DNA of 34,974 nucleotides from Guillardia theta CCMP2712 (taxonomy: Eukaryota > Protista > Cryptophyta), in NCBI RefSeq assembly GCF_000315625.1, contig NW_005434423.1, positions 1 through 34,974 of the forward strand. Direction: 5' to 3'. Positions 1,459 to 32,118 of the stretch are shown here, one piece after another. The position numbers were made by a program, and so were the translations under genes. Each line of letters starts with the position of its first letter. Within the stretch, counting starts at the first letter, position 1. Under the pieces are notes generated by a model. The model made no database searches. It had not been told where the DNA came from and was given only the letters and a program-made list of their open reading frames with translations.

Positions 1459-4400
1459 CTCCATCATTGCCATACTGAAAAAAACCATCATACACCATAT
1501 TGTTTGAATTACCACCTGAACATCTACTTGCGTCACCCATAGATGCACCCCCTCCACTTCCACCATTTGCACCAGAACCACAGGTGAAAGGACTTCCATT
1601 CATTCTACCACCTCCAGCACCACCCCCCTTTGCAACATATGTAGCAAAAGTCGAATCATAACCATTGTTTCCAACGCACGGTGCTGAACCGCATATTCCC
1701 ACCCCAATACCTCCTTTACCTACATTTGAAACGAAAGTTCCTGAATTGAATGCAATATCAAGACCAAGAAGCACACCACCAGCACCACCCCCTGCTCCTC
1801 CACCTGTTGTTCCACCACCACCCCCAACAATCAAAATATCCACCACCATCGGCCTGCTGAACGTCACCGAATAAGTGGCCTGGTTTCCTGTCCCGTAGTA
1901 TGTGAGATAGTAGACGAAGCCCAGCGACCCAGCCCCGAGCTCCAGCACGGTGGGGATCGGGGAGATTATGAGCTGTGTCATCTTGCAGTCAGTACAGGGA
2001 GCGTAGCCGGTGGGGCACGACTGGCAGGTGCCCGTGGAGTCGGGGTACTGGTTGATCAGACAGGTCGAAGGTGTGTAGCAATCGTCGATGCTCCTTGCCT
2101 TGCCCGGGGCGCTGATTTTTCCAGAAGGGCAGCTCACACAGGTAGGCGTACTCAGAGTCCAATCGTAATACTGGTTCGCTTGGCAAGGATTTGTTTGGCA
2201 AAAGCACTCGTTGGTCGAGCCGGATGGGGAGATCTGGCCGTTGGTGCATTTCTGGCATGCAAAGATGTCTGCTAAACGCCATACATTCGCAACACCCGTA
2301 GAGAAATACAGCTTGGTAAAATCCTCAGAAAATGCAAGTGATTTTGGATTGGTTAAAGTGGTCGAAAGTGCATTGAAATTATCCACGTTTGTTGCAGTGC
2401 CGGTTCCTATCAACACGCTGACATACAGATCCGAAATGCGGATAGTCTTGATAAGATTGTTGCTGGCATCAGTCACAATCAAATAATTGTAACTAGGGGA
2501 AAACAAAAGGATTGCTGGATTACGGAATCTTACTGATGCTCCAAATCCATTAACATTCCCCGATGTGCCATCAAGACCAATAAAATTTGTGACTGCCAAT
2601 GTTGTAAGATCCAATCTCTTTATCACATGTCTGTCATGACAAGTGAAATAAGCATACGTTTCATCTTTATCAATGGCAATATTGTGAGCCGTGCAGGTTC
2701 CGGTAGAAATCGATGGGTTCGACTTCGTGTATGGAGAATTATAATCAATGGTCCGTATACCGTTAGATTCTGAAATGTATATCAGATTCTGCCTCTTACA
2801 AAATGCTGAACACAATGGATAATTGAATCTAGCATTCGTTCCTACTCCAGTGTTCGTTCCACTTGACCCAGACACACCAATGCGTTGTATTACTGTGGCT
2901 GTTTCTCCCCAAGATGGAATCGTCAAAATATCAACTACATGACCTGAATAATAACAGACAACCATCTTCTGATTATCGATAATACGAAGATCGATTGGCA
3001 GATTGGGCGTTGCGGACAGGAATATACTATTTGAGCTGGTATCACTTTCCCTTATCATCCGCAAATTTCCTGGGCTAGAATGTTCACACCAGTATAGTAT
3101 TCCATTAAAAACAAACGAACCATGCGGTTGAGCGGTGGTTGTACTGATACTCCTGATATTCCTTGCATATTTTACATCACCCAGACCATACAAGTTTTGT
3201 AAGCAAGGGCTTTTATCATCACATGTCCCACTGTTCGAACTCGCATACGCCGGAGACACAGTCCCCGCCGCACACGCCACGCACTGCCCACTCGTGGAAT
3301 CGTAGTAGGAGCCGGCCGCGCATGGAGTCTTACAATCACAGATCGAGAGGGAGTTGCCGGCAGAGTTCCCGGAGGGGCACGCCGCACACCCACCGTTGAC
3401 CGTGTCCTGGAAGGTGTCCACTGGGCAGCCGGCAGGGGCGGTGCAGTCCGAGGTGGAGTAGGCCTTACCCGCGGCGGATACAGTGCCGCTAGGACAGGAT
3501 TGGCAGGAGACTGTTGCGGTGTCGTAGTACTGGTTCGCGGTGCAGGGAGAGGTACAGCCGTAGAGATCGGAACCGGGTCTCGATGTGCCACCGCCGGGGC
3601 AATCCTGACACGTGTTGGAGCTGTCAAGGTACTGATTCGCAAGACAGCCCTGGCACCCATTCAGGAGATAGAAAGCGGCCTTCTTCCCTGCACTGGTCGT
3701 AGAGAACCACTGGGAGGCAGTAGCCCCGTTAGCCCCGGACTCGGCAAACGCCCCCTTCCCTGCGACGTTGAAATTGAAGTAACTCCATGCGTTATTCTTG
3801 TTGAGGTAGTCAATCTCGGAACTATACACATTGAAGTCAACCCAGGGCTTGTTCCCACTGTCAGACCAAGCATAGGCCATACTCGCAGAAACGCTAAAAG
3901 CCCCGTACGCATCCGTCACCCGCTCGTAGATCGCAAGCCAATTGTCGATGTCACAGTCATAGCACACCCTCGCAATAGCCGCGCTCCCCTGCGAGGCGAC
4001 CATCCAATTAAACAATGCGTCGAGGTCGTTGAGAGGCGATGAGATGGCAGAATTCAAGTTTGTGACTCCAGGGAAGCCACCGGATATGACCAGTTGCGGG
4101 TCAAAGTACCAGGTCTTGGCGTAAGTGCCGGGGGGACAGCCGGTGGGATAGTAGAGCGGGAAATAATGCTGGTCGACGTCGAACTGGGTGAAGCTATAGT
4201 TATAAATTCGGAAATCATCGATAGAGCCATCTGTTTTACCAGCAGCTGCCCAATTTGCCCTTGCAATATACCAATTTCTACTTGAAACAGTAGATATTGA
4301 CCCTATAACTTGCTGATTGCATCTGTCACATATAATCTCACCATTAAACCAAACAGTAAAATACGCATCCGATTGCACTGATATACAAATATGAAACCAT

Positions 4401-7400
4401 TGTGAATATATCACTGGAATATTGTTCATGATAGTCTTACCACTGTTACCATTGAATGCTTGTATCCAGACACCAACACCCGCTGCTTTCGTGTTTTGAA
4501 ACATTATATTACTGTTTGGTGCACCCCCGCCAAAATCAAAGAACCTAGAATCTGTTCCAGTTAAAGACGTCATGTAAGCCCATAAACTAAATGTTATTCC
4601 AGTAGCTTGTTGTATTCCTCCAATATCAATCGTATTCGGCACCGTCATATACTGCTGCGTTCCAGCCGCACTGAACTTCACAGCCCCATCCCCCCTCCTC
4701 CCCTGCCCCTGCGTCGCCCCGTAGTTCGTCGCATCGTTACCGTTTCCGGAACTATCCAGCCCGAGGTTGTTCGGGTCCTCGAACTGGTAGCTCACCAGCG
4801 GCGCGTACGGCTGGCAGCCATCCACGGAAGTCGCCCCGACGGAGTACGTCGTGGTCATGTGGGGGCAGCGGTCGCACCTCTTCATGCCGGATCCATCGTC
4901 GTAATGTCCATAATCGCAGCCCACACACTGGCTTGCCGTGAAGTTGGGTGTGTGGTAGTCGCCCTCGCAGTGGACGCAGTCTTTCAAGAGATAGAACAAC
5001 GCCTTCTTTGAAGATCCAACAGTGACGCCACTGGTGGAGAGAAATTGAGAACTTGCCGCCGCGGTAGGCCCACAATCCCTGAAGGCACCAGTGCTTCCGT
5101 CATAGTTGCAGTAACCCCAAGTGTTGACATCATTCAGATAGTCGTATTCAGACCCAAACAACTTAAAGTCCACCCCCATGCTGTTATCCGTAGCGCTCCA
5201 GGCATAGAGCATATTCGAAGACACGCTCCAAGTATCCTTGTACGTGATGCGCTTGTAAAAGATGAGCCAGTGTGTCAGGGCACAGTCATAACAAACCCTA
5301 ACGATAGTGCCATATCTGTTGCTCGCAACAAGGAGCTTAAAGGCATCGTCCCAGCTCGCCACCGGGGCACTCGCGGCGGCGTTCAGATCCGTCACGCCCG
5401 GGAAGCCCTTGCTGGCCACCAGCTCCGGGTAGTGGTACCCGAGCGGGTTCGGGTTGTAGCTGTCGCGGATGCAGCCGGTCGGGTAGAAGAGCGGATAGTA
5501 GTGCTGCTCGACGTCGAATTGGGTAAACGGAAAAGGATAAACGCGGAAATCATCAATGGCACCATACAATCGATAACTACCACCGTTTCCTATTCTCCAA
5601 ATTGGAGTTGTGACTGAACCCATTTTCCTTTTCGTTAATTTGTTGTGGACCAATTCACCATTAAACCAAATCATGTATGCATTTGCATTATCTGAACCAT
5701 CGTCGGGTAAAATTGACCAAACAATGTGATGCCAAGTACTATATGGGCGATTAACTTGAACGAATGAAGCACTTCCACTATCATAAGCCGCTATAGCAAA
5801 ATCTAAATTATTGCTTTGGATCAATAACCCATTCCCACCATCCCTGAAAAAAATGATATTTGAATAAAGATTGGTAGACGACGTTCTGTATAACCAGAAA
5901 GACAGCGTTATACCACCACTTTGCTGTATTGCACTGAAATCATGTATCCCATTCAGCACTAGATTTTGATTAGTAGAACTTCCATCAAAGTATGCAGCAC
6001 CGCTTCCTCTCCTTCCCATTCCAAACGTTACACCCCCTGTATTTGTTGCATGATCTCCATACCCCGAGCTATCATATCCCAAATCATTCGGATCATCAAA
6101 CTGAAGGCTGGTGAGCGGCTCATAAGCCGTGCATTGGCTTAAAGAAGTAGCCCCCACCGCAGCAGTCGTGGTCATGTGAGGGCAGCGGACGCAGGTCTGG
6201 GTGCCGGTGCCGTCATCAAAGTAACCAATTTCACACTTACATTCTGATACAGAATTTGAACCAATTGATCCTGTAGTATAGTCACCAAGACATGCCATAC
6301 ACCCAAAGTCAGGTGCTATATTTTCTAGAATTCGAAGATCGTCCCCAGTGTTCTGATAAGTCAAAAAAGCATACAAGACATTATCCATATCTTCACTACT
6401 TAATACCTGATCCCATATGTAAACCTGGGAGAAGGCAAAATTGCTAGATTGCGAAGAAATACCATCGTTGATACGCAAAGCATTGTTTCCAGATCCACCT
6501 GTAGCCAAACCTTTATCCCATATTGTAAAACCTTGCTTCAAGGAAGCCATCTTGACATTTGTTGGAATTACACCTCCGTTGGTAGCACATACACTTAACC
6601 AATCATCCGCATTATTCAGTCCCCAAAACAGACTTTCTGTATTGTAACTCGTACCAAGAAATACTATTCCTGCTTTACCATTTGTTCCACCAGCCGTGTC
6701 AATATGACCCAATGCAAAATTACTGTTTCCTTGCAAGACCCTGCTTCTAGACCCACCATTATATCGAATCATAGCACATATAGTGAAAGTACTTGGTATA
6801 CTGTTAGTAGGCCAATACATTTTTTCAGCAGTCGTCCCTTTGACGTAAGCAACAGATCCCACTGCACCGCTACCACTCTCAAATCCAGATGAAAAACCAC
6901 TGCCTACGACTGTTACTGATGCCCTACTACCAAGAGAATCAGGTATTCCCGAACCAGTCCAATCTTCAGCATGGTAAATTCCCCATGGTATTTTTGTATC
7001 TAAAAGATTACCCAACCTTTGATAAGAATTACTATAGATACTTTCGCCATTCGTAGAATATGTCCCCTTGTTGCATTGAGCCAAGTTTTCATCAGTTGAT
7101 AAAACACATTGTGTTGATGTTGTAGATCCTGTTGCTAAAGTTGTATATCCATCAGGACATCTAGTGCAACCATCTATTGTTATTTCTTGGAAAGACATGT
7201 AGTCAGCACTTGGTTTATTCCAGTAAATGAACACATATCTGCCTCTCAATGAACATCTCACTGTTAATTTTTCATTATTTGTAGAAAAGTCAAAATACCC
7301 AGTTCCACATTGTGCATTATTCAATGCCGTTGTTGAATCACCGATTAATATTCTTGAATAATCGTTCTGTTGTGGACAACAATCTACTCTGCTCCATAAA

Positions 7401-7756
7401 CTGACTTCCTGTACATCTTTCGAACTCCCGAGATCAATCCTAAACCAGAATGTTGTGTAAGTTGTTCCGACCGGGCTTGAGTGATATCCTGATGCAGTTG
7501 TATCATAATTATTATCAACAGCACCCGCAAAACTAAAACCAGTCCATGCTCCACCGCTCAGAGAAGCCAACGAACAACTACTGGGTGTTGTACCACAATC
7601 TTCTAACGACTCCATAAATCCTGATGCTCTATATGTCCCAATTGGACAAACACCAGGAACATGATTGTAGGACGTTTGCACTGAAACTGATAAAATTGAG
7701 ATGAATAAAAAACACAAATAAATTTCCACTTTTGCAATAGAGTTCCAATGCCTCAT
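1..7756 (-). CDS. Giant secreted Cys-rich repeat/multi-lectin protein, 5' part. Continues across the circle junction to 33233 (2679 aa), or to 32119 with a +1 shift (~3050 aa). Order: signal peptide, F-type lectin (FTP/F5-8C-like), ConA-like, 2x [LamG + unknown domain], NHL propeller, Gly-rich domain, second NHL propeller, all within GCC2_GCC3/ephrin-receptor-like Cys repeats
   Basis: ATG 7756 gives MRHWNSIAKVEIYLCFLFISILSVS (signal-like). Motifs: AVDNN..YHS..WFRIDLG..WSRVDCC (F-lectin); TLSFW..WHHIV..GAIDDFRVY (LamG, twice); GTNARFNYP, ASVRFRNP, AAKFYNPTGVAVD (NHL); DILIVGGGGG..GGSGIIILR (Gly-rich); recurring CxxCPxGxxSxxGSxSxxxC. Confidence 0.9.
758..857. other. Scaffold gap (100 N); true content is 99 bp
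   Basis: The same flanks in the second copy enclose 34275-34373 (99 nt). The 1-nt excess creates the false stop at 734 in the ORF track. Confidence 0.95.
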
Positions 7757-7841
7757 GCTTCCGACACCTATCTCTTGAACAACCAGCACACCAACTGATA
7801 TATGTGGCCCACCCAGACCCGCGGAACGGAGCACGGGAGTG

Positions 7842-8690
7842 ATGGAGAGCCTTTACCGCGGCGAGGACAGCGACGGGACGGGCAGGTCGGAGCCAAAAAA
7901 TGGGGGGATGGGTAACGGGGGTAACGGTTCAGCGTTCGATGTCTCGTTGGTGGGGCGGGCCCGGCAGGGGTTCCGGATGCCTGTGAGTGGGGTTCTTGGT
8001 CATAGCTCCAAGCCGCCCACCGTCGCACCTACAAAGCCGATCACACAGAGACCAGTGACAAGCGGTCCGCGGATGGTGCCGCCGCCTGACAGGGTTATTA
8101 GTCCATCTCTAAAAGATTCAGACAGTGCCTACAGCCTTGCGACCGACGACGGGGCGAGCTCGAAGCACCCGGAGATCGTCAGGACGGGATACATACTATC
8201 CTTCACTATAGTCATCATGACAACCTGCATCCTAGAGAACCGGGGCAACGTCTTTGCGCTGAACCTTGCGATGCTGGCGGCGATGCCGCTGCTGAGTGCT
8301 ACCATGGTATTGCACAGCAGCTCTCAAGGGAGGATACGGTATTCGTTGCTTGCTATGGTGGGGGTCACGTGCCTCTCGGCATCGTCTATATCTATAATCC
8401 TCTCGGACACGACGCTCTCCCTCCTGCGGCACACACCCGGCCTGCTCTGTTTGACTCTATTCTTCTACGGGATGTCGACAGCCTGGCGGCGGATGATGTC
8501 GGCGGTCTGCTCGGTGCTCATATTGCTATGTATCATAACCTCCGCAATCGTCGACGCCAACTTCGAGAACAAGCAGACCATGGTTTTAGCGACGTGCCTG
8601 ATCTTCGGTCTCTTGTTCCTAGAATCCAACGTCGCGGTGACACCGCTGGCGTGTAAGAAAGAAGAAGGGGGGTGCATGGGGATAGTATGA
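7842..8690 (+). CDS. Hypothetical membrane protein: disordered Pro/Gly/Ser N-terminus plus ~6 transmembrane helices
   Basis: Six hydrophobic segments from YILSFTIVIMTTCIL to TMVLATCLIFGLLFL; AATAAA at 8694-8699. Start codon uncertain. Confidence 0.8.
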   Translation: MESLYRGEDSDGTGRSEPKNGGMGNGGNGSAFDVSLVGRARQGFRMPVSGVLGHSSKPPTVAPTKPITQRPVTSGPRMVPPPDRVISPSLKDSDSAYSLATDDGASSKHPEIVRTGYILSFTIVIMTTCILENRGNVFALNLAMLAAMPLLSATMVLHSSSQGRIRYSLLAMVGVTCLSASSISIILSDTTLSLLRHTPGLLCLTLFFYGMSTAWRRMMSAVCSVLILLCIITSAIVDANFENKQTMVLATCLIFGLLFLESNVAVTPLACKKEEGGCMGIV

Positions 8691-8737
8691 GATAATAAAA
8701 CTAAGAACTTTACTTGTACGCAAACTAGGACCAATGA

Positions 8738-9574
8738 TTACTCCTTGCGCTGCTTCTTCTCGACAGAGCTAGCCGCGCCTTCGCTGGCTGCCCTCTTCAC
8801 TGGGAGGGCGGCACTTTTCGTGGATTTCATCATTGGTACCGTCCTCACGAGGTTGGCTGACGCGGCGTCTACCTCCTTCTGGATCCGAGGCTGCATTTTC
8901 TGGTCGACGGCGGAGGTGGTGATGATAATGCAGAGTGTCATCTTGCTCTGCATAACCGTATCGTAGATGGCATCGATTCCACCGAGGGCCTCGATCTTCT
9001 GCTTCATGCCGCGCGCCTGCAACTTATACTCGGCATCCAAACGCAGCCGTTTCCCTTGAAATTCGAGGAATTTGAGGGTTTCGGGGAGGTCGAAGAACGA
9101 GGTGTTGTTCTTCTTCTGAAACAATCTAACAAAGTCAGTAATGTTCTTGGATTCGTAGCGAATGATCTTATTGTTTTTGGGATCCTTGATTGCCTTCTCT
9201 TCGTACTGCGTGGTGAAGCTCTTGGGAAAGTTTTCCATGCTGCTGCCCTCGGCCAGGTAGAGGGAGGTGTTCACCTGCTGCACGCGGATGCATTCCCTGA
9301 TGTGATCGTGACTGCACTTCTTGCACCCCGCCAAGTGATTGCTGAAATTTTCGACCAGGAAGAAATGGATGCACTCCCCAAGCTTGTGCAAAAGGCTGTG
9401 ATGCACGAATTCGGGCGGGTTGAAGCCAGCGGGTAGCTTCCACAGATACGGAGCGACGTATGGCAACTTTAGATTCTGGTTCCAAAGCCAGGGTGCACCA
9501 AGGCGGTAGAGTCCAGTGGACGGGATATCCTTGATCCTGTAGACGCGCAAAGGTGTTGGATTTTGATCCGACAT
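8738..9574 (-). CDS. Hypothetical basic, probably nuclear protein (278 aa) with HxxxCxxCxHxH cluster and C-terminal bipartite NLS
   Basis: Start reassigned to ATG 9574 (MSDQNP), with TATAAAA at 9617-9611; the upstream extension is antisense to the 9683 gene. C-terminus VKRAASEGAASSVEKKQRKE. Confidence 0.8.
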   Translation of the reverse strand: MSDQNPTPLRVYRIKDIPSTGLYRLGAPWLWNQNLKLPYVAPYLWKLPAGFNPPEFVHHSLLHKLGECIHFFLVENFSNHLAGCKKCSHDHIRECIRVQQVNTSLYLAEGSSMENFPKSFTTQYEEKAIKDPKNNKIIRYESKNITDFVRLFQKKNNTSFFDLPETLKFLEFQGKRLRLDAEYKLQARGMKQKIEALGGIDAIYDTVMQSKMTLCIIITTSAVDQKMQPRIQKEVDAASANLVRTVPMMKSTKSAALPVKRAASEGAASSVEKKQRKE

Positions 9575-9610
9575 GACAGATTGCCTTGCCCGCCCTCCCA
9601 GCCCGCGCGC

Positions 9611-9653
9611 TTTTATATGGAAACACACGAGGGTGCGACGCCATCGATTTAAA
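9611..9653. promoter_or_regulatory. Divergent core promoters: TATAAAA (minus) and GATTTAAA (plus)
   Basis: Boxes lie 43 and 37 nt from ATG 9574 and ATG 9683. Confidence 0.6.
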
Positions 9654-9682
9654 CGTACTGAAGATCCCGCCATGCCAGAGAC

Positions 9683-10510
9683 ATGGCCTTCACGGTGCTG
9701 TTCGCGGCGCTGCAGTTCGCGGTTGCGCTGACGGCCATCGTGGTGACCTCCAAGATCGTAGGCCCGCGCCTGTACTACTACCACACGAGGATCACAACGC
9801 ACAACATGGACGCGCTTTGGTCGCGGAACGTGTCCTTCGTGGCGCTGCACCCGGGAGGGATGGACGATATGGGGATGGGGGGTGCGGGGTTTGACAGCGT
9901 CACGGCTTCGCAGGGCAACCGCATCATGCCATCGCACCTTGACTCCGTAACCTTGACCATCCTCCCTGTCCTTCTTGTGACCCTCTGGACGACGATGACG
10001 ATCTTCAAGCTGCCTGAGAGCAGGCAGTCGTGCTCGAAGATATCACCCGAAGACTCCTATTCACACGAGACCATGCAGGAGCACGCCACCTGGCACATCC
10101 TCTTCTTTGGCATCCTCTTCGTCCTGAACGCGGCCTTTGTCGTCTACGTCTGCAGCCCGGTCGACCTCCCCGTCGTCACCCTCGTCACCTGCATCCTCGT
10201 CCTGGCGGGGGAGATTGTCACGCTCCCGCGCGGGGAGGAGGAAGGGCATACGCTCGCTAACTTCCTCCGGTCTCTGTCACTATTGTTAATGCTAATTGTG
10301 TATACCTTCCTGTACTCCCAAGCCAGGAATGACGCAGAAGGGGTCATGGCAGCCGTCGCCGCCCGCTTCTTCCTAGACATGATCCTCGTCATCTGCCACA
10401 CAGGGAATGGAGTCGTCATGGAGCACATCGTGGAGTGCCGCGTCCTGTATGTCGTCTGCAACAGCGTCCTCCTGACATCGCTCTATGCCTGCTGGGGGAG
10501 GTGGAGGTGA
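9683..10510 (+). CDS. Hypothetical ~7-transmembrane protein
   Basis: Seven hydrophobic segments, GC3-rich codons, GATTTAAA 37 nt upstream. Confidence 0.85.
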   Translation: MAFTVLFAALQFAVALTAIVVTSKIVGPRLYYYHTRITTHNMDALWSRNVSFVALHPGGMDDMGMGGAGFDSVTASQGNRIMPSHLDSVTLTILPVLLVTLWTTMTIFKLPESRQSCSKISPEDSYSHETMQEHATWHILFFGILFVLNAAFVVYVCSPVDLPVVTLVTCILVLAGEIVTLPRGEEEGHTLANFLRSLSLLLMLIVYTFLYSQARNDAEGVMAAVAARFFLDMILVICHTGNGVVMEHIVECRVLYVVCNSVLLTSLYACWGRWR

Positions 10511-10553
10511 GATATTTAAAATTAGAAGAGAACCAGAGAGTCAAACATCAGGG

Positions 10554-11258
10554 ATGTCACACTGGATAAAACGAGAGGAAAAAGATATGACGGCAGAGGA
10601 GCAAATTGTTCAACTTATCGCAAATTTACTGTACGACGAACTCCTGGATAGAGGGTATGACACATTGGAAAAACGCTACCGCTATCTCACAGATGTGATA
10701 TTCGTCGAGGATGTACGCGATTTCACTGCCACCAATATTCAATGGACGAACAGAAATTTCTGGGAACGCAAAGTATGCGAGTCGGCGAAAGACAAGGAAA
10801 ACAAATCCGTATACATGAAAGTGCTCAGAAAAGCCTCTATGGTTTTAAGAAGGCACAATAATGTCCACGAAAGAAACGTATTTGCGACAAGGATGGGGTT
10901 GCTGTCCCAAAGTGTAGTATCAGGCATACTGATCGATGACGTAAAGCCAATCGACGAATTCAAAGCCATCGTCAACACTCTGAATGATCTTCTAGACAAT
11001 ATCAGCAAGCATACGATATACAAGGGGATCAAGGAAGATAGACAGGATGTAGAAAACATCGTAAAACAAATCGAAGAACACACAAGGAAACAACACGATT
11101 CGCTTTGGGGTAATCTGACAGAATCATCTCGAATCAAAACTAATACAGATAAATTTAGAAAAAAGAGAAGGATGCCCGAACAAACGAACGTTTACGATGA
11201 TGTCAGAGATGTAATCGTCATCATCCTGGACCTAGGGGTGCAGGCATACCTCATATAA
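10554..11258 (+). CDS. Hypothetical AT-rich, charged helical protein (234 aa)
   Basis: Long open frame in AT-rich DNA; TATTTAA at 10513-10519 supports ATG 10554. Confidence 0.75.
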   Translation: MSHWIKREEKDMTAEEQIVQLIANLLYDELLDRGYDTLEKRYRYLTDVIFVEDVRDFTATNIQWTNRNFWERKVCESAKDKENKSVYMKVLRKASMVLRRHNNVHERNVFATRMGLLSQSVVSGILIDDVKPIDEFKAIVNTLNDLLDNISKHTIYKGIKEDRQDVENIVKQIEEHTRKQHDSLWGNLTESSRIKTNTDKFRKKRRMPEQTNVYDDVRDVIVIILDLGVQAYLI

Positions 11259-11341
11259 AATGGACTCATACGCATTCATGGCTTGTGAGGTGGAGGTAAA
11301 GACAAATAGGATCATAAAAGCCCCTTAAACTTTAACGAGAA

Positions 11342-11461
11342 ATGGACGCAGTCAAGGAACGCATCATCTACACAGTGGTATCCTACCTCTCGGTCGGTCT
11401 GTCGCTGAACCTAGCCCTGTACTGCCTCGTCAACAACTTCAGGTTCGATTGCGGGGTGTGA
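11342..11461 (+). CDS. Small 39-aa single-pass membrane protein (below ORF-track cutoff)
   Basis: MDAVKERIIYTVVSYLSVGLSLNLALYCLVNNFRFDCGV*; GC3-biased codons; AATAAA at 11464-11469 directly after the stop. Confidence 0.6.
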   Translation: MDAVKERIIYTVVSYLSVGLSLNLALYCLVNNFRFDCGV

Positions 11462-11530
11462 GAAATAAAAAAAATGGTGTTTTTTTTTCAATAAAAAAAA
11501 TTGAAATCATCACCCTCATACCCCGACCCA

Positions 11531-11897
11531 GGTCCCCAGGGAAAGCCCCCCCCCCTTGCCAGATTTCTGAAAACCGTTAAACCGTTAAACCGTTAAAGTT
11601 AACGGTCTTTAAAACCTTTAAAGAAGGTTCGCCGGACAGTATACGTATAGTATGTATATAGTATATAGTATGTATGTATATGTATGTATATGTATGTATG
11701 TATATACATACTATGTATATGTATGTATCTATGTATGTAATATATGTATATATATATATATGTCCTGCGAACCTTATTTAAAATGATCAAAGGAGAAGAA
11801 TCGCCGGACGGTGGTTGAAGGTTTTAACGGTTTAACGGTTTAACGGTTTAACGGTTTTCAGATTCTGGCCAGGGGGGGGGCCTTTCCTGGGAGACCC
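11531..11897. repeat. Nested imperfect inverted repeat around an AT-rich core; candidate replication origin/maintenance element
   Basis: Outer arms ~11531-11597 and ~11822-11897 contain C10/G9 tracts and CCGTTAAA x3 versus TTTAACGG x4. Inner 22-bp arms 11617-11638 and 11761-11782 differ at 2 positions. The repeat is directly visible; the function is inferred. Confidence 0.9.
11639..11760. repeat. TA/TATG microsatellite-like core (~122 bp)
   Basis: Near-continuous TATG/TATA/TAG units between the inner inverted repeats. Confidence 0.95.
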
Positions 11898-12107
11898 GGC
11901 TGTATAAGTAATTATAAACCCCCCGCTTCCCCGCTCAGACCACCTCTTTTTTATTTTTTTTTAAGGGAGGGTCCGTTTCCTCCTCCTCCTCCGTTGATAG
12001 CAAGGCGGGAAGGGCGGGGAGATCGGGCGGGGAGAACCACCACAGGCGTCCTGCATCGGCCATTATTTAAGCTTGCGCGGGTGGAGAGGGGGAAAGTAGT
12101 CGCGCGC

Positions 12108-12851
12108 ATGTCCAGGAGACCGCCCGCGGACACATTCGACAGCGTCTACTCGCAGCCCGGCCCCAGTCCGGCAAATGTTTCAGCTCCCTTTCGTTCCCCC
12201 GCCGCCCAGCGGTTCAGTTCCCCGCACCCCAACTTCATGGCGTACAACTCCCCGTTCCAGGCGGTTCCTTCTCCTCAGACCTACCCGGGTGTATCCGCTT
12301 TGGTGGACTTCCGGGATGGCATCCAGATCGTTGAGGACGAGGCGGAGCTTGACCGCGACGTGCTCCCAAGTTTCCTGCAGAGGAACGGCCGCAAGGGTGT
12401 TTCTTCCAGGGGCATCGCTGGCAAGTACCATGACGACGACGATGAGCACGAGGATGCGGAGGAGGAGACGGTGAGCGCCTCCGCGGAGGATGTCCGCAGC
12501 ATGGTGGAGGAGAACCTCCGCCGGAACTGCAAGTCCCGCTATTCTTCCTTGTCTGCGCTGGCCGGCAGATCCGGCGATTCTTCTTTGAAGTCCTCCTCCG
12601 AGGGGAAGCTTGACAAGAAGGCGGACCATGAAGACATCCTGAAGAACGTCCGCGAGAGCCTGAAGGAGATCCGGTTGAAGCTGTCCGGCGAAACTCCCGG
12701 GGGTTTAAAGGAGAGCTTAAAGGATAAGGCGCCGGTGTCTTCCTCTCTTGCGACGTCATCCCTCGCGTCCTCCCTCGCATCCCCCGTCCCGGGAACGACC
12801 CGCAGCTCCCGCCTCCTGATGGGGAGCGTGGGAAGCATGATCCGTGCGTAG
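12108..12851 (+). CDS. Hypothetical Ser/Pro-rich, largely disordered protein (247 aa)
   Basis: ATG 12108 (MSRRPP) lies 44 nt after TATTTAA (12064-12070); many SP motifs and an acidic tract. Confidence 0.75.
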   Translation: MSRRPPADTFDSVYSQPGPSPANVSAPFRSPAAQRFSSPHPNFMAYNSPFQAVPSPQTYPGVSALVDFRDGIQIVEDEAELDRDVLPSFLQRNGRKGVSSRGIAGKYHDDDDEHEDAEEETVSASAEDVRSMVEENLRRNCKSRYSSLSALAGRSGDSSLKSSSEGKLDKKADHEDILKNVRESLKEIRLKLSGETPGGLKESLKDKAPVSSSLATSSLASSLASPVPGTTRSSRLLMGSVGSMIRA

Positions 12852-12888
12852 GGGTGTTTCAACCCAGAGTGTATTTAACAAAGCGTGA

Positions 12889-13521
12889 ATGTACCTGAAA
12901 ACCAAACCATCGGCTCGCACCACCCCCTCCTGCCCGCGCACCTGCATGCGAACGGTGCAGCTGCTCTTCTACCGCGCCCAGCCGCAGGACCATTGGATCA
13001 ACCGCCTCGTGTCCTGGCTGGACCCGCCGTACGTCCACGTGGAGCTGAGGTTCGAGGATGGGATGGCGTCGTCGATCTTCGCTGGCGAGGTCCTCTTTTT
13101 CCGCCCCCGCAGCTTCGCCAACCCGCACTACCACATCGAGACCCTCACCGCGGAGGAGAGGGGATATCAGGAGATGTACCTCTACTGCCAGCGCCGGGCG
13201 GCCCAGAATGTCAGGTTCGACAACCTCGGCCTTCTCCTCGCCGCGCTGCCTTTGTACACCCGGACCCCGATCGACCGCACCTTCTGCAGCCGGCACGTCG
13301 TCGAGACCCTCCAGATGGGGAACGTGCCGGAGTTTTTGCTGCTATCTCCCCACCGCACCACCCCGACGATGATCTTCAAGGCCGCGAAGAACTCCGGCAG
13401 GACGTTCTTCTCCAGCGTCCCGTTCAAGATCAGCATGCTGGAGAGGAGCCAGGCGGACCGCCCCAGGACAAAGGAGAGGACGTCGGAGGGCGTGGTGGAG
13501 GCGGTCACCTTCAGGCGATAG
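12889..13521 (+). CDS. Permuted papain-like (NlpC/P60 superfamily, YiiX/YaeF/poxvirus G6R-type) amidase/peptidase
   Basis: His-before-Cys order: PYVHVELRF ... RFD ... RTFCSRHVVETLQ ... TTPTMIF; TATTTAA at 12872-12878. Confidence 0.8.
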   Translation: MYLKTKPSARTTPSCPRTCMRTVQLLFYRAQPQDHWINRLVSWLDPPYVHVELRFEDGMASSIFAGEVLFFRPRSFANPHYHIETLTAEERGYQEMYLYCQRRAAQNVRFDNLGLLLAALPLYTRTPIDRTFCSRHVVETLQMGNVPEFLLLSPHRTTPTMIFKAAKNSGRTFFSSVPFKISMLERSQADRPRTKERTSEGVVEAVTFRR

Positions 13522-13607
13522 GCATGCTGGCCGCACTGTCGGTCATGGGGTATGGGTTGATCATATGAAACGCACAGATGGTGTGCATTACGTAGTAAAT
13601 TGGGTGT

Positions 13608-14072
13608 TTACCCCGTTTTCTTCTTCCCTGTGTCCAAACCCCCGCGCTTCCCATCGCCCTTGAGCACGCCGTTGATGCTACCCATGAAGGAGAGGTAGAG
13701 CTTGGCCATCTTTTCGTCGACGCAGCGGTGGCCGGTCTCCTGATCGACGGAAACGACGCACTCCCTCACTTCGGCGGCGATCCTGGACATCTCTCTGACG
13801 CTCCTGGCCGCCACCATGTTGGGGCAGACCATGTGGGAGTGGATGTGCAGCCTGACGCCCTCCCGGGTCATGCCGCAGTCCGGCCACTGGGCGAGAAGGT
13901 TCTCGTGCACCTGCGCGACGATCTCCTCCTCCGACATGAGCAGCGCCGAGTCCCGGATAAAGTCCATGACCGCCTGCATGTAGGAGCAGTCCGAGCTGCA
14001 GTAGCGGCAGAACCAGCAGCCTTCCTGCAAGTTTTGACTGTCCTCCATTCTCTGGTCCATCATTCCGTCCAT
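13608..14072 (-). CDS. Small putative zinc-binding helical protein (CxxC ... HxxxH)
   Basis: CWFC ... MTREGVRLHIHSHMVCP; TATAAAA at 14117-14111; GC3-rich frame. Confidence 0.8.
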   Translation of the reverse strand: MDGMMDQRMEDSQNLQEGCWFCRYCSSDCSYMQAVMDFIRDSALLMSEEEIVAQVHENLLAQWPDCGMTREGVRLHIHSHMVCPNMVAARSVREMSRIAAEVRECVVSVDQETGHRCVDEKMAKLYLSFMGSINGVLKGDGKRGGLDTGKKKTG

Positions 14073-14110
14073 GCCCGCAGGCTCCTTCCTCCCGGAAACG
14101 CGAAATCGCG

Positions 14111-14151
14111 TTTTATACTTCTGGCACGGCTGTCCACCAACCCGTATTTAG
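14111..14151. promoter_or_regulatory. Divergent core promoters: TATAAAA (minus) and TATTTAG (plus)
   Basis: Boxes lie 45 and 42 nt from ATG 14072 and ATG 14187. Confidence 0.6.
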
Positions 14152-14186
14152 GACACTGCCTTCCGCGGGATGGTAAGTACGGCCTT

Positions 14187-17100
14187 ATGACCACCCACGT
14201 TCCCTTCTACACCTACGGGCCGGTCTTTGGGCCGAGCGTGTCTGGTGGGATGGATCCCTGGGGTATGGTTCAGGTTGGTGTTTCGGTGAAAGGCAGGAAG
14301 CCGTTTGGTAGGGTTAACGGGGATAACCAAAAAGTTCATAATGTGAAACAACCAACCTTCAAGCCAAATACAGATCTCATGAAGGAAAAGAGGAAAGTAA
14401 AGAAGGATGAACACATGAATGTGACGAGAAAGGAAGATGTCAAACCAGCCAAACATGAAACAACCTTCACATTCCCCTCGAAGCCCCCCGCCCCCTCTAA
14501 GCCCCCCGTCTTCCTCCGCCCCCACCGCGAGGAGATCGACCTTCGCTTCCGGGCGATGCGGGAGAACCAGAGGTACACGCTTCTATTGACTCACAGGAGT
14601 GGGGAGCGGGATGCTTCCCAGGGGATGCCGATGGGCCCCGTCCTGCAGTACGACGACAGGCTCCTGGAGAAATCATCCCCTGCCCCGGTTCCCCCGTCCT
14701 TCAACGTGGATAGGCACTTCCTCCCCGGCTGGCGCAAGCACCGCCCTCCCCTCCACAACAAGCGGCGCTGGCTCCGGTCTTACTTTGGGTACCTGCCCTG
14801 GCGCGGTGTGAGGGATGAGCTCAAGCTCGTGGACAAGGAGGACGTCACCACGACCACTCCGCACGACCTCGCATGCTTCTTTGCCGCCCTCTTCAAGCTC
14901 CATCAGCTGTCCGTGGATGGGGAGGACCTCCCCCTGAAGGCCGCCGTGTACGGCGCTGGATGCGGTGGCAGCACCGTCCCTCTGGCGCTGCTGTCCGAGA
15001 TGGTCTACTGCGTCGAGTGGAAGCAAAAGGAGTGCAACGAGCTGCGCAAGAACATGAACACGATCCTCGGGCACTTTGGTGTCAGCCCCTCTCGGGTGGG
15101 TGTCATCCGGGACGACTTCACGCAGTTTGCCCTCCCCTTCAATACACAGTATCTGCTGGTGTCACCGACGTGGGAGGAGAACGGGGACGAGCCCAACGAC
15201 CGCGTGTATTGCGGGCTGCAGCGCACTCCCGTGGAGGAGGTTGTTTCCAATGCGTTCGAGATGAGCCAGGGTCTGAGGATGGCTGTAGTTCACCTCCCTG
15301 TCACCATCGATCGGCAGGCCCTGCAGAAGCACTTCAACGAGAAGAAGCTGAGGTGTGTCTTTCGCCCCTTCATGGGCCCCAGGGCCGTTCTGCGGACCCT
15401 GTCCTCCAGTCGAAACCCGAGTATCGGGGGTGTACAGGATGAAGGGATGGACCCACTCTTGGAGATGCTCTCGGAGATGGCCATGCCCTCGGGGGAGGAT
15501 CCGGTTGTTCCCACGGATCAGCAGTGGAAGGAGATGCAGAAGAAGATCGCGGCGACGATAGGCAACGCTGGTGACATCAATGCTGCCATCGACACCCTCG
15601 TCCGCGGCTACCAGAAGCCCGGCGGGATCATGCGAAACTACCTGCGGGCGGTGAGCAGGGGTGTCTTCCAGAAGCCGCTGACGTTGGAGAGGCTCGACCC
15701 CTCCGGCGATGACTTTGACGGCTACAGGCCGGTGAAGCGGTACCTGCATAACATCGCGATGATTGTCACCCGGGATGAACCCTACCAACTCCCGGACCGC
15801 CCTGCCTGGACCTCCCGCGAGGAGCACGCCGCCTCTGCCTCCCTCCAGGCCGTCGAGATGGAGCAGATGGCGAGGGCGCTGCAGCTCGGCTTCAAGGCGG
15901 AGCCGGAGAAAGTGCTCGCTGCCACCCACGCAGCTCGGGCGGCTTTGCCGATCGTCTGGAAGGACGACATGGATGTCGGCGAGGTCATCGGGAGCCTTAT
16001 CAAGGCGTACCAGCTCATCGGCGCCAGCAACGCCCCGTACCCTTACTCCGCCCGGTCCGACGCCGACCCCACTGAGCGCAGGGCCAGGGCGCTGTTCCGG
16101 GAAGTGAAGCGCGGGGAGAGGGAGGAGGCGAGGATGACGGCCGAGGATGCGAATGTGGTGAAGAAGCACAAGAAAGTTACCGAATCCTTGGAGGATATCA
16201 AGGCTCTTATCCAGGAAGACAACGAGGTACTGAAGCATGTAAAATTAAGGCTCAAGGAAACTAGAGAATTTTGGAATCGCCTGCAAGAAAGGGTTCCACG
16301 CGTAGCACCCAGGAAGACACCCGGGGGCAACAAAGAGAATCCATCAGCCGTGGACGGAGGGGCTGCGGACACAGACGATGCGCTCTTACAAGAGATGAAG
16401 AGAGTTAAGAACATGATCAGAGAACTGGAGAGGGAGAAAGAGCAATTGGAGAATGACATACAGGAGTCTATGGAGGAAGAGAAGGAGGTGGAAGAAGAGA
16501 TGAAATCAATCACTAGCAACCATGACGACAGGAGTATGCCAGCAACATCGGAATCCCGCATGTCCAGGGCCTACGTGTCCCCCGAGGAAGACAGCCTCTT
16601 CGCCATCACGCAGGAGGCGCTCAGCGCGGTGTCGATCCATCCGAAGCAGGAGGGCCAGGCGCTGGGTGCGACCTGGACTTCCAGGAAGGTGCGCGACAGC
16701 GATCTGGACCTGGCGATCCGGAGGGTGGACAAAGCGGTGTCGGCGCTGCAGGGAGGCACTCCTTTCCAAGTAAGTCAAACAGCATCCGCGTGCCTCCACC
16801 AGGCGCAGGCCACCCTGCAGGCCGCCGCGGAGACCTTCGCGGACACTGCCGAGTTGCAGAAGGCCCACGACGCGCTGGATGCCCTTGTGAACGACATGCA
16901 GCTGGCGTTCTCGGGTGCGCTGCGTCCCGTGGAGGTCAGGGCTGACGAGCCCGACGAGGAGGCAGCCGCGCGCTACCGGAACCTGCACGTCACGCACGCG
17001 AACAAGGCGGTGCGGGGCTTCGTGCGGGCCATCCGGGCGTACCGCTCCAAGGTCCTGCACACCGCGGAGGAGCTGTACCCGCGGGAGTGCGAAGACTGGG

Positions 17101-18554
17101 TCGACACGCTCGCCACCATCCACGAGACGGAGAACGCGGTGATCGCCGCGGGGGAGACGGCGCTCGGGGTGAGGAAGCTGGCCAGCGACCTGGCGGCCAT
17201 CGACCCTTCCCGTCCCGGCGCGGCCAGGAGGAGGGATACGCTCTCTTTGAATTTACAGAAATCCACCGCCGCGCTGAAGGAGCAGGTCGCCGCCTACCAC
17301 CGCGTCCGGCAGCCATCCTCGCAGAAACCCCAGGCCCTACTCGACGGCATGGTGGTGAACGAGATGCTCCGGACCGGTTTTGCCTGGCGAGACCCGGCGG
17401 TGAAGGCGCAGGAGGAGCGCTGCGGCCGGGCGCAGGCCTGCATCCGGCATTACTCCGCGGTGATGTCCACATTGCTGGCGGCGGGGCTGGACCCTTCTAG
17501 GATTGATGCCGGGAGGGTTGCGCTCCATGGGCAAGTAGGGCCGGAGGTGGCGGCCGGCCTCGTCCTCCGCCGCGCCACGCAGCGCAGCAACATCCAGGCG
17601 CTGGGCAGGGCCATGGCCGAGGTGCGGGACACGGGCTACTCCGGGACGGACATCGAGCGCCTCACCCTCACGGACACGGCGCTGCAGAACCTCCACGCCA
17701 TGGTCCACTGGGTGGAGACGCTGGACCCCAGGCAGGCCGCGGAGCGGGTCGGCAGCGCCCTGCACGCCCCCGGTGCCCCCTTCACGGACGAGCAGAAGCG
17801 GAGCATCGCGGAGGCCGTCAAGACCGTCCCGAGGCTGAAGCCCATCCGTTCGCGGGTCTGTGCTCTCCGGGACGCGGTCGACACGGCGCTGCAGAGGGGC
17901 GTGTGCACCGCTGACGCCCTCGAAGCCCTCGACGCCCTGTCGCACATGGGCGAGGCGGAGGACCTTGCGGAGATCGTCGCCCCCAACGCCCACCCCGCTG
18001 CCATCTCACTCAGGAGGCTGCTGCGGGTGTCGCAGGACATCCTGTCTGACTTGTCCAGTGAGGGCAGCCCCTTCGTTCCCGACACGGTGATGCAGATGTG
18101 GAGGTCGTACCTGGATGACTTCCTGTCGTCCCCCGCTGGAACCACCGACCTGGAGGTCCTGGAGGTGATGATGCAGGACAAGGCCTTCGGACCCAGCATG
18201 CTAGCCGACTGCCAGGCCCTCGTGCAGCAGCAGCAGGACCTGGCTGCCAAGGTCTTTGACGGCTACATCGCCGCCTACACCACCCTGGGCGCCCTGTACG
18301 ACGCCTACTCCCGCTGCCTCCGGATCGCTTCCACGCTCCCGGACTTTGCATCACAAGATGACTCCACCAAGTATGAAACCCTCTCCCTCGCCGACGATTG
18401 CGCCGCCGCCGCCTACGAGACGGGCCTGCTCGCAGAGGACATCCGCGAGATGCGCGGCGTGGTCGGCGAGAGCATCCGGCACATGCACGGGGTGTGCGAC
18501 GTTCGCGGGCTCATCTCCGAGCTCAAGATCAATGTCTCTGTGTTGCTGCGGTAG
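14187..18554 (+). CDS. Large (1455 aa) protein: degenerate class I SAM methyltransferase-like (Tgs1-like) domain followed by coiled-coil and long Ala-rich helical region
   Basis: Start reassigned to ATG 14187 (TATTTAG at 14145). VYGAGCGGSTVPLA..VYCVE..LRKNM..VIRDDF..LLVSPTW parallels Tgs1 CGxGGNxIxFA..VxAID..ARHN..FIxGDF..VFLSPPW. E/K-rich coiled coil at ~16180-16520. Confidence 0.75.
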   Translation: MTTHVPFYTYGPVFGPSVSGGMDPWGMVQVGVSVKGRKPFGRVNGDNQKVHNVKQPTFKPNTDLMKEKRKVKKDEHMNVTRKEDVKPAKHETTFTFPSKPPAPSKPPVFLRPHREEIDLRFRAMRENQRYTLLLTHRSGERDASQGMPMGPVLQYDDRLLEKSSPAPVPPSFNVDRHFLPGWRKHRPPLHNKRRWLRSYFGYLPWRGVRDELKLVDKEDVTTTTPHDLACFFAALFKLHQLSVDGEDLPLKAAVYGAGCGGSTVPLALLSEMVYCVEWKQKECNELRKNMNTILGHFGVSPSRVGVIRDDFTQFALPFNTQYLLVSPTWEENGDEPNDRVYCGLQRTPVEEVVSNAFEMSQGLRMAVVHLPVTIDRQALQKHFNEKKLRCVFRPFMGPRAVLRTLSSSRNPSIGGVQDEGMDPLLEMLSEMAMPSGEDPVVPTDQQWKEMQKKIAATIGNAGDINAAIDTLVRGYQKPGGIMRNYLRAVSRGVFQKPLTLERLDPSGDDFDGYRPVKRYLHNIAMIVTRDEPYQLPDRPAWTSREEHAASASLQAVEMEQMARALQLGFKAEPEKVLAATHAARAALPIVWKDDMDVGEVIGSLIKAYQLIGASNAPYPYSARSDADPTERRARALFREVKRGEREEARMTAEDANVVKKHKKVTESLEDIKALIQEDNEVLKHVKLRLKETREFWNRLQERVPRVAPRKTPGGNKENPSAVDGGAADTDDALLQEMKRVKNMIRELEREKEQLENDIQESMEEEKEVEEEMKSITSNHDDRSMPATSESRMSRAYVSPEEDSLFAITQEALSAVSIHPKQEGQALGATWTSRKVRDSDLDLAIRRVDKAVSALQGGTPFQVSQTASACLHQAQATLQAAAETFADTAELQKAHDALDALVNDMQLAFSGALRPVEVRADEPDEEAAARYRNLHVTHANKAVRGFVRAIRAYRSKVLHTAEELYPRECEDWVDTLATIHETENAVIAAGETALGVRKLASDLAAIDPSRPGAARRRDTLSLNLQKSTAALKEQVAAYHRVRQPSSQKPQALLDGMVVNEMLRTGFAWRDPAVKAQEERCGRAQACIRHYSAVMSTLLAAGLDPSRIDAGRVALHGQVGPEVAAGLVLRRATQRSNIQALGRAMAEVRDTGYSGTDIERLTLTDTALQNLHAMVHWVETLDPRQAAERVGSALHAPGAPFTDEQKRSIAEAVKTVPRLKPIRSRVCALRDAVDTALQRGVCTADALEALDALSHMGEAEDLAEIVAPNAHPAAISLRRLLRVSQDILSDLSSEGSPFVPDTVMQMWRSYLDDFLSSPAGTTDLEVLEVMMQDKAFGPSMLADCQALVQQQQDLAAKVFDGYIAAYTTLGALYDAYSRCLRIASTLPDFASQDDSTKYETLSLADDCAAAAYETGLLAEDIREMRGVVGESIRHMHGVCDVRGLISELKINVSVLLR

Positions 18555-18642
18555 ATCACTTAGCTGTCCTTACATCTACTCTTGTTTTATGATTTATTTT
18601 CATATTTAATTTGAATACATTGAATAGCGATCATAAGGGGCT

Positions 18643-20022
18643 ATGGATCGACATGCTCATGCCCAAAATGTGGATAAGAGAAAGCGACTTGTGCGAGAGC
18701 TTGCACGACTCGGCCGTGAACAACGAAAAATAGTTTATGAACAGATAAAAAGATTATTTCAGAAACAAAAAGAAAACAATAAACGTCTTTTCAGCGGCGT
18801 GGAAACAAAAGCAAGGGATGTAATTCCCGGTAACGATTTCAATTATGTAGAATTCAAATTTCAGTTTGATATACGGGGAAGACCACCATATGAGTTAAGT
18901 TTTTATTTTCCCGACATATATGATATGGCCATTCATGATCCATCTCAGGCAGTTTACATGAACTATAGAAAGACTTACTGGCTTACAATTCAATATTTTG
19001 CCATGTCGAAATTGAATGATGCAGATAAGGAATTATTACGGAGATGGACACAAACGGAAGACTATTCAATCACTACAATGTTACTGCAGATTTTCTTTAA
19101 AAAGAAATGCGAACCAAGAAAATCCATTCCCAAATCAAAAGAGGAACTCAAGTCAATCATGGATGTAATCGTAGGTGATATAATAAGGCACAAACTTTTC
19201 CCAAAATTCATTCAAGATTGGGAAGCATATGAGAAACAACAAAATGAAATACACCAAAATCCAAACGATACACCAAACCAAGATAATTCTCTCCATGGAA
19301 ATATTCTTCCGTCCACATTCAAAGACGCAACCTACAAAGAACTGAAGAAGATACTCTCGGAAAACAATTATGCTAAAGTCAGAGAGGCTGTGGTCGCCTT
19401 TATAAAGGAACTTTATAGAATCAACGGGTTGCTCAGACCCATCAAAGATAAGTTCTGTCCACCCGACTTTTGGGAAGGTGCAGACATCTATGTCTTCAGG
19501 GGACATAATGACATTGATTTCAATAATCCAGATTTTGACCATAACAATGGTATTTTTTCTACGTCTCTTGAGTTCAACGTTGCTGCTGGATTTGCCACAA
19601 CCTTGAAAGAGAGTCATATGAAGGTCAAAGGGTCAGGAAATGACGAATTCATAAAGAATACGGTGTATATCCTTAAACTTTCTTACGAATCGAATGCCCT
19701 GTTCACTATGCCGTTGTCGCGCTTTGATCATGAGATGGAAATCACGTTGTTACCAGACAATGAAGAGGCCTTTATGCAGAGCCTACAGGACTGCATGAAT
19801 CTAACAATGGAGGACGTGCTATGTAAGAACCCAACTCCTCTGGTATCGGATGACATGGTACTGGACGGGGAGATAAGGGACACGATGCGTCGCGTATACA
19901 GCATCAAGGAGCGTGATTTCAGATTCCGCGATGATAGTATCAGTTTCATACACTGCGATAGCTGGTATGTATTGAGTCCGGATACAGGTTATATTCTGAA
20001 GGTAGTTAAAGCATATGAATAG
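18643..20022 (+). CDS. ADP-ribosyltransferase, R-S-E (cholera toxin/VIP2/C3-like) clade, ExE type
   Basis: YVFRG (R286), IFSTSL (S306-T-S), HEMEITLLP (E364-x-E366) in canonical order; TATTTAA at 18603-18609; AT-rich gene. Confidence 0.85.
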   Translation: MDRHAHAQNVDKRKRLVRELARLGREQRKIVYEQIKRLFQKQKENNKRLFSGVETKARDVIPGNDFNYVEFKFQFDIRGRPPYELSFYFPDIYDMAIHDPSQAVYMNYRKTYWLTIQYFAMSKLNDADKELLRRWTQTEDYSITTMLLQIFFKKKCEPRKSIPKSKEELKSIMDVIVGDIIRHKLFPKFIQDWEAYEKQQNEIHQNPNDTPNQDNSLHGNILPSTFKDATYKELKKILSENNYAKVREAVVAFIKELYRINGLLRPIKDKFCPPDFWEGADIYVFRGHNDIDFNNPDFDHNNGIFSTSLEFNVAAGFATTLKESHMKVKGSGNDEFIKNTVYILKLSYESNALFTMPLSRFDHEMEITLLPDNEEAFMQSLQDCMNLTMEDVLCKNPTPLVSDDMVLDGEIRDTMRRVYSIKERDFRFRDDSISFIHCDSWYVLSPDTGYILKVVKAYE

Positions 20023-20042
20023 CCTAGTAATGCGGGCATGAG

Positions 20043-20801: not shown

Positions 20802-20881
20802 TTATCCTTAAATAAGGGTGTTTTTGTGATGTATGGGTTCATTACTCTCGATCTAATTTTATTGAAACGGTACCACTCACT

Positions 20882-21559: not shown

Positions 21560-21579
21560 CTCTCCTGGCGTGCGATCAC

Positions 21580-21593
21580 TTTATTCTTAAATA
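21580..21593 (-). promoter_or_regulatory. Abutting TATTTAA promoter box and AATAAA poly(A) signal
   Basis: The minus strand reads TATTTAAGAATAAA in the 48-bp intergenic gap. Confidence 0.6.
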
Positions 21594-21607
21594 TACCACC
21601 TAGCCCG

Positions 21608-22541: not shown

Positions 22542-22609
22542 GTTGTCTGGGGTGCGCTCCCGTTTCCCGCGCTTTTTGTAGCCCTCGCTAAAAAAAAGAA
22601 AAAAAATTA

Positions 22610-24064: not shown

Positions 24065-24104
24065 TCGGGTAACTTATCTACACGATTTATAAGAAAGGCT
24101 TTAT

Positions 24105-27089: not shown

Positions 27090-27128
27090 ACCCGAAACAA
27101 TGTCTTTAATAACAGTCTATACCACCAA

Positions 27129-32015: not shown

Positions 32016-32118
32016 CTCACTCACCCAGGCAAAAACACAAGCGCTTAAATGAAGGCATTGGGATCCATGGACACAAAAAAGGAAAGAAAACACACAGTTT
32101 TATTACCACAAGGCTACG

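Follow-up and report, generated by a model that had tools for sequence, protein, structure and literature searches.

Defective and amplicon genomes of herpes simplex virus (HSV) are small head-to-tail or circular units that carry neither replication nor virion genes and keep the cis signal, and the hrs of baculoviruses are multi-copy imperfect palindromes built as arrays of short palindromes. In the origin OriS of HSV-1, inverted boxes flank an AT-rich spacer and are accompanied by a third inverted box (excerpts of PMC12543377). Among mirusviruses, the Aurantiochytrium episome AurliV-1/CE1 is described as a complete, circular mirusvirus-type DNA of 298 kb, present at about 9x the level of the chromosomes (excerpts of 10.1101/2023.06.15.545109 and PMC12606086). 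In two major mirusvirus orders, no DNA polymerase is present and replication is left to host enzymes (excerpt of PMC12768974, section 10), which raises the issue of the sites and the means by which genomes of this size begin to replicate. Neither a mirusvirus origin, packaging signal or subgenomic circle nor the element presented here is described in the excerpted texts of PMC12768974, PMC12606086, 10.1101/2023.06.15.545109, PMC10675990, PMC11465185, PMC12911909, PMC12220804 and PMC12747079, a survey of non-subscription papers with supplements for PMC10827195 alone; likewise, no cis element is given for the cryptophyte clade E03 in excerpts of PMC10827195 and PMC11465185.

We analyzed a 34,974-nt stretch of DNA (the window) containing a mirror-symmetric intergenic element, which is real, conserved within a family of copies and probably viral. 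Like OriS, it places inverted boxes around an AT-rich spacer and holds a third box inverted relative to its neighbor; it differs in its 122-bp spacer, its added 8-bp iteron arrays, C/G tracts and GC boxes, and the weak hairpin of the third box. The inner boxes match Box 1, the UL9 site (GTTCGCAC), at 6/8 positions on the left, 7/8 on the right and 5/8 in a sibling copy from a metagenome (L015), and the window contains the GTTCGC hexamer about as often as chance would give (18 observed, 19.6 expected). Pfam returned no match to a UL9-type origin-binding protein among 18 window ORFs. Given the partial box match and the lack of a UL9-type protein in cis, we class the element, as far as its sequence goes, as origin-like in layout only and outside the alphaherpesvirus origin family. 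The resemblance to HSV-1 oriS drawn in the original prediction holds for the layout and does not extend to an initiator of the UL9 type, none of which was found.

Similar distinctions apply to the other systems. With HSV defective genomes and their “a” sequence, the carrier of the element shares a small size, the lack of replication or virion genes and one conspicuous cis signal, but no helper is identified at the genome level and the carrier is filled mostly by giant Cys-rich surface-protein genes. Provided that it is circular, it would resemble AurliV-1/CE1 as a circular mirusvirus-type DNA residing beside integrated relatives in a cultured protist, from which it differs by a size of 33.5 kb, an apparently non-autonomous nature and an abundance of about 1x. 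Baculovirus hrs are likewise a multi-copy family of imperfect palindromes in a nuclear DNA virus; here, however, one large mirror with a melting core is present per unit instead of arrays of short palindromes.

Anatomy of the mirror element

The element occupies an intergenic gap of 646 bp (11462-12107), the runner-up among the 18 gaps of a 19-ORF set measuring 114 bp, in agreement with the original prediction that this is the only long non-coding region. The coordinates proposed there were all correct on direct check, and tracts, iterons, inner arms and core are present as described (Table 1). From the outside inward, both sides lead through a GC box, a C10 or G9 tract, a linker, 8-bp iterons and a 22-nt inner arm to the 122-bp TA/TATG core. 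Start positions of CCGTTAAA on the left (11574, 11582 and 11590) and of TTTAACGG on the right (11823, 11831, 11839 and 11847), neither of which occurs elsewhere in the whole window, bear out the predicted iteron counts of three and four. The outer arms (11548-11597 and 11831-11880) display 86% complementarity across 50 nt. Local alignment of the left against the right side yields a score of 104, reached by 0 of 1,000 dinucleotide shuffles (mean 19.9, maximum 34), and the best mirror score at 671 centre positions off the element is 32. Folding of the region 11520-11905 results in z = -15.7, with 0 of 100 shuffles folding equally well. Symmetry is strongest inside the element and weaker outward, and the mirror proper spans about 11520-11905. 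A third copy of the inner box, in direct orientation and overlooked in the original prediction, renders the right side asymmetric; a hairpin between this box and its neighbor is not significant (z -1.30 and -1.57).

The outermost A/T tracts had also been counted as part of the mirror. As they barely align and carry AATAAA/TTTATT motifs, which are likewise found just beyond several other gene ends in the window, we read these tracts as probable poly(A) signals rather than mirror components. Separately, the RNA ends of five molecules in run X10 (27 reads placed, from ~6% of the run) fall at 11510, 15 nt beyond the AATAAA motif (11490-11495), and may mark a poly(A) site, seen in few reads and in a low-complexity region.

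The core shows 94% purine/pyrimidine alternation and has the lowest duplex stability of any 120-bp stretch in the unit that carries it, at -0.98 kcal/mol per step (next weakest -1.20; mean -1.48, sd 0.12). As a palindrome it is unexceptional, 190 of 200 shuffles folding at least as well. A poxvirus-type hairpin junction or protelomerase site was rejected, given a core that is not self-complementary, arms of only 83-91% complementarity and unrelated flanks. A telomere was likewise rejected, the G-rich strand being directed away from the core; we know of no telomere unit matching the 8-bp repeat.

Table 1 Features of the mirror element and its carrier, in window coordinates
Feature	Position	Strand	Remarks
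Circular-mapping or tandem unit, 33,516 bp	1..33517		Window 33518-34974 repeats 1-1458; closure within one long ORF
A/T tracts, AATAAA at 11464 and 11490, just past 39-aa ORF 11342-11461	11464..11500	+	Probable poly(A) signals, by presumed role
Left outer flank	11504..11523	+	Conserved in sibling L015
Left outer arm: GC box, C10 (11546-11555), linker	11528..11570	+	Tract G-rich, of similar length, in both L015 arms
Left 8-bp iteron array	11571..11597	+	3.4 copies, 100%; then inverted partial copy 11600-11605
Left inner arm (box)	11617..11638	+	GGACA end at core
TA/TATG core	11639..11760		Weakest duplex of unit; self-complementarity not above composition
Right inner arm	11761..11782	-	91% complementary to left inner arm
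Third box, in the same orientation as the left inner arm (84%) and inverted relative to its neighbor	11794..11812	+	Variable among copies
Right 8-bp iteron array	11823..11857	-	4.4 copies, 100%
Right outer arm: linker, G9 (11872-11880), GC box	11858..11899	-	From arm alignment
Right outer flank	11900..11917	+	Identical in L015, there in inverted position
T tract with TTTATT	11947..11962	-	Variable among copies
RtcB-fold protein ORF	22610..24064	+	Context, outside element; links unit to G. theta scaffolds and mirusvirus-like contig

The carrier unit and its affiliation

The end of the window repeats its start, delimiting a 33,516-bp unit that, judging from this overlap, is circular or else tandemly repeated. 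Two of the ten window proteins compared are identical letter for letter on a 63,921-bp contig, equivalent to 1.9 units. In run X11, the depth of a unit-specific ORF is ~10.4x versus ~10.2x expected genome-wide, a comparison made in a ChIP library with a rough genome-size proxy, and suggests about one unit copy per genome equivalent in this run and not a high-copy episome.

Searches against Pfam (18 ORFs) and PHROGs (13 ORFs) recognized giant ephrin-like, laminin-G and NHL surface proteins. No capsid, polymerase, helicase, integrase/transposase or packaging ATPase was matched in the unit by these searches, which divergent copies could escape, and no HK97 MCP, portal, triplex or terminase was recognized on it with these general, rather than mirusvirus-specific, profiles. 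The absence of a replication or virion gene match supports the original view of a cis element acted on in trans. A Polinton, PLV or virophage was rejected as identity of the unit, the same Pfam (18 ORFs) and PHROGs (13 ORFs) searches yielding no capsid, pPolB, packaging ATPase or integrase match. A sigma-70 promoter scan gave chance-level results, of no relevance here. Approximately half of the unit encodes giant, Cys-rich, surface-like proteins of ephrin-like, laminin-G, NHL and PA14 type (1-7756 joined to 33233-33517, 24105-27089, 27129-32015 and 32119-33315).

Genes of the unit match Guillardia theta proteins at up to 99.6%. For the divergent ORF at 22610-24064, Foldseek assigns an RtcB-like fold (E 6e-8 against solved RtcB), and Pfam has no match; among 93 homologues of its family, three are named Guillardia theta and lie on scaffolds of 260, 573 and 655 kb, and a fourth G. 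theta relative, 99.6% identical, is located on a scaffold of 176,329 bp. A more distant homologue (33%) on the contig G001:C3 adjoins a portal-fold protein (Foldseek E 1.9e-9), and this contig also carries Snf7 and heliorhodopsin. An NHL-repeat homologue is a further gene shared with contigs that bear mirusvirus core genes. Portal, Snf7 and heliorhodopsin are mirusvirus core genes (excerpt of PMC12768974, section 10). Moreover, contig sizes of 12,084, 24,514 and 7,100 recur in both the RtcB-like and the portal-like match sets, suggesting conserved linkage. The neighborhood of the RtcB-like family, with portal, Snf7 and heliorhodopsin elsewhere, indicates a mirusvirus lineage for the unit, which thus likely belongs, by indirect affiliation, to the mirusviruses of a cryptophyte. 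Mirusvirus MCP, triplex 2 and maturation protease are recorded for the G. theta assembly (clade E03, excerpt of PMC10827195); a search with the putative triplex of G001:C3 returned no G. theta-named protein among the best 120 of 143 homologues. In line with clade E03, G. theta encodes near-identical relatives of unit genes, and one of their families neighbors a portal gene elsewhere, whereas the unit differs in lacking a virion gene match, and no link was found between its scaffolds and the MCP-bearing ones. The contig G001:C3 (57,858 bp; L046, L048-L050), mirusvirus-like in its portal fold, Snf7, heliorhodopsin and putative triplex, is filed in a bacterial MAG.

Copies of the element beyond the window

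Part of the region is present in 7 of 24 sequencing runs. In run X2, a 190-nt contig with a depth of 235.6 covers 11571-11661 with no differing letters, one inserted base and 98 extra letters on the core side. Summed contig depth in this run amounts to 235 at the left inner arm, 380 at the right inner arm and about 560-575 at the left outer arm, window-identical contigs having depths of 32-57. In raw reads of X11, the arms are covered 3.8-4.8 times as deeply as the unit-specific ORF, and neighboring genes are present in about 2.6 copies. Collectively, these values suggest about 4-18 element copies, a rough range, as depth is no true copy number. As a ChIP run (antibody unspecified), X11 displays no excess at the element above the copy ratio seen in X2. 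Loose ends of the arms run into other flanks, and variants with different cores are found (loose ends 11606, 11607 and 11834). The right-arm contig starts ~28 letters before the end of the 190-nt contig, about the expected overlap given that 11662-11768 is masked. This fits an intact arm-core-arm path common to several copies, as reconstructed from record coordinates across the masked stretch.

A pattern scan of metagenomes yielded 33 matches, of which one (L015) is a true sibling and 32 are unrelated repeats. L015 matches the window at 120 of 143 bases over arm, iterons, inner arm and core start, and adjoins a gene absent from the window, whose family is also represented in G. theta on a scaffold of 243,622 bp. 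Its architecture is distinct, with two arms in tandem, followed by one inner arm, 32 nt of core and ~630 nt in which neither a long ORF nor a mirror arm is present. Between GC box and linker, both of its arms (400-440 and 506-535) carry a G-rich homopolymer tract in place of the C tract found on this strand of the window; from these sequences, it seems to be the length of the tract rather than its sequence that is conserved.

The 176,329-bp G. theta scaffold encodes EKX34806, EKX34808 and EKX34816, relatives of ORFs 7842, 9683 and 22610. There are 7 accession numbers between EKX34808 and EKX34816, and the window contains 8-10 ORFs in this interval, including the one at 10485-11258, which some copies leave out by joining 10508 to 11342. 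Provided that accession numbers follow position, the element is likely internal to a collinear gene block of this 176-kb sibling and would, at such a position, probably be neither a plain integration end nor a MITE. The joints that omit ORF 10485-11258 skip 833 bp in X2 and 843 bp in X6, with the flanks joined.

No copy of the element was detected on the 57.9-kb contig G001:C3, which is distant and partial. Pattern scans of viral contigs gave either no matches or 12 and at least 120 (in 43 of 64 parts) chance matches, protein-guided scans of viral contigs found no relative, and plasmids, phages and Rfam contained no match to the element. The original prediction of a shared signature of sibling circles is upheld with respect to sharing, based on depth, loose ends and L015; it is not supported with respect to circles, because close relatives of the genes sit on scaffolds of 176-655 kb.

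Possible origin function and alternative readings

We tentatively favor, at slightly less than an even chance, an oriS-like origin that responds to trans-acting factors and has been kept by a subgenomic circle dependent on a helper. The choice of an origin builds on the oriS-like layout, on the low duplex stability of the core, on conservation across copies with different genes and on retention by a unit in which no replication gene was recognized. The likely internal position in the 176-kb sibling and the mirusvirus-like gene context also speak for it. In the proposed mechanism, the head-to-head 8-bp iterons and the inner boxes would be occupied by proteins that bend the DNA and melt the 122-bp TA core, creating an entry point for the replication machinery. 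Since the 33.5-kb unit shows no replication gene, such proteins would have to be supplied in trans, by a helper virus or the host nucleus, and the unit itself would be a subgenomic, amplicon-like and helper-dependent derivative that kept the signal. Origin function, protein binding, circularity, the affiliation with mirusviruses and an internal location in the 176-kb sibling are what we infer, whereas the anatomy, its uniqueness in the window, the weak duplex, the sharing among differently flanked copies and the lack of replication or virion matches were observed directly. Two points speak against an active origin, namely the presence of only about one unit copy per genome equivalent and the lack of a skew switch: cumulative GC, AT, purine and keto skews, which had been named as a check of the original prediction, have no extreme at the element, the nearest ones lying at 7,819-10,492. 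The partial Box 1 match, the weak third-box hairpin, the lack of an initiator match on the unit and the failure to find the element on the distant, partial contig G001:C3 also weigh against an origin.

The broken mirror of L015, ending 32 nt into the core, and its tandem arms fit a genome end better than an origin. As the main rival reading, the element may represent joined genome termini, that is, a terminase cleavage and packaging signal similar to the herpesvirus “a” sequence and cut in or near the TA core, a reading that we regard as possible, if somewhat unlikely. Such a signal would be intact in circles or concatemers and split upon host capture of a linear genome, and an origin role could coexist with it. 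The ~630 nt without long ORF or mirror arm that follow the truncated core in L015 are in line with this reading, as is the homopolymer tract that keeps its length while changing from C to G, similar to a measured spacer; the C/G tract may resemble those of pac1, and there is a putative likeness to the repeated “a” sequences of herpesviruses. The contig of 1.9 units bearing window-identical proteins is as expected of a head-to-tail repeat, and a defective genome also requires a packaging signal. However, the broken copy is a single case that has perhaps merely decayed, herpesvirus packaging signals are directional while the element is a mirror, and cleavage could do without iterons and a melting core of 122 bp. 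A dispersed enhancer or nuclear tethering and segregation site, bound by host factors and present several times per virus genome like baculovirus hr or EBV FR, appears decidedly unlikely. It would account for arm copies outnumbering those of neighboring genes, for arm variants with other cores and for the clustering of YAACGG, with 8 of 38 window matches falling within a 281-bp part of the element; yet there is a single copy per 33.5-kb unit, a dedicated melting core and a strict mirror exceed the needs of an enhancer, and the co-directional flanking genes exclude a divergent promoter.

The remaining alternatives involve mobile DNA. We consider it very unlikely that the inner TG...CA marks the ends of a giant transposon-like element inserting into host (TA)n microsatellites, the mirror being a circle junction or an assembly join through a collapsed microsatellite. 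The arms do finish with TGTCC/GGACA at the TA run, L015 resembles such a junction, and variants exist in which TA runs follow straight after the iterons. Conversely, the core start is homologous in window and L015 and has a non-trivial pattern, the high-depth contig seems to run through the core without branching and to meet the right-arm contig (as deduced from coordinates, with 11662-11768 masked), the gene order of the 176-kb sibling crosses the element, and Pfam and PHROGs gave no integrase or transposase match. That the element is a MITE or foldback repeat of the host, inserted into the intergenic spacer and devoid of a viral role, is highly improbable. It is indeed an inverted repeat as long as a MITE that occurs in several copies with differing flanks, and homologous genes are found on chromosome-sized scaffolds, but its copy number, at about 4-18 by depth, seems low, no target-site duplication is visible by eye at the outer ends, and symmetry is best inside and fades outward without sharp outer TIRs. 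Furthermore, the asymmetric outer flanks are conserved in L015, and the only readable foreign flank is another intron-free, gene-like ORF.

Extending the favored origin reading, a broader scenario that we deem unlikely would have a polymerase-less cryptophyte mirusvirus exist as co-resident circles and integrants, being segments or satellites, which are licensed by one shared mirror origin. In this case, the iterons, which contain TAACGG, presumably a Myb-type binding core, would recruit a host Myb-type protein, the TA core would load the host replisome, and the 33.5-kb circle would serve as a giant surface-protein cassette. PMC5352318 contains nothing on TRF2/ORC. If a shared, host-driven origin proved true, it would provide a defined origin as well as a satellite or multipartite organization in herpes-related viruses of protists. 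Being compact, conserved across copies and accompanied by near-identical relatives in a cultured alga, the element is a directly testable candidate, and it may be used as a probe to find and delimit all sibling elements in cryptophyte genomes.

Some further ORFs of the unit deserve mention. ORF 8738-9673 had no usable match in the ESM Atlas. The low-GC ORF 18643-20022 gave no ADP-ribosyltransferase match in Pfam; its C-terminal half is, by eye, what we take to be ADP-ribosyltransferase-like. ORF 14187-18554 displays a weak match to an RNA-cap methyltransferase (Methyltransf_15, E 0.053), and ORF 12889-13521 matches phrog_1128 (E 5.5e-7) and resembles, by eye, a permuted papain-type amidase.
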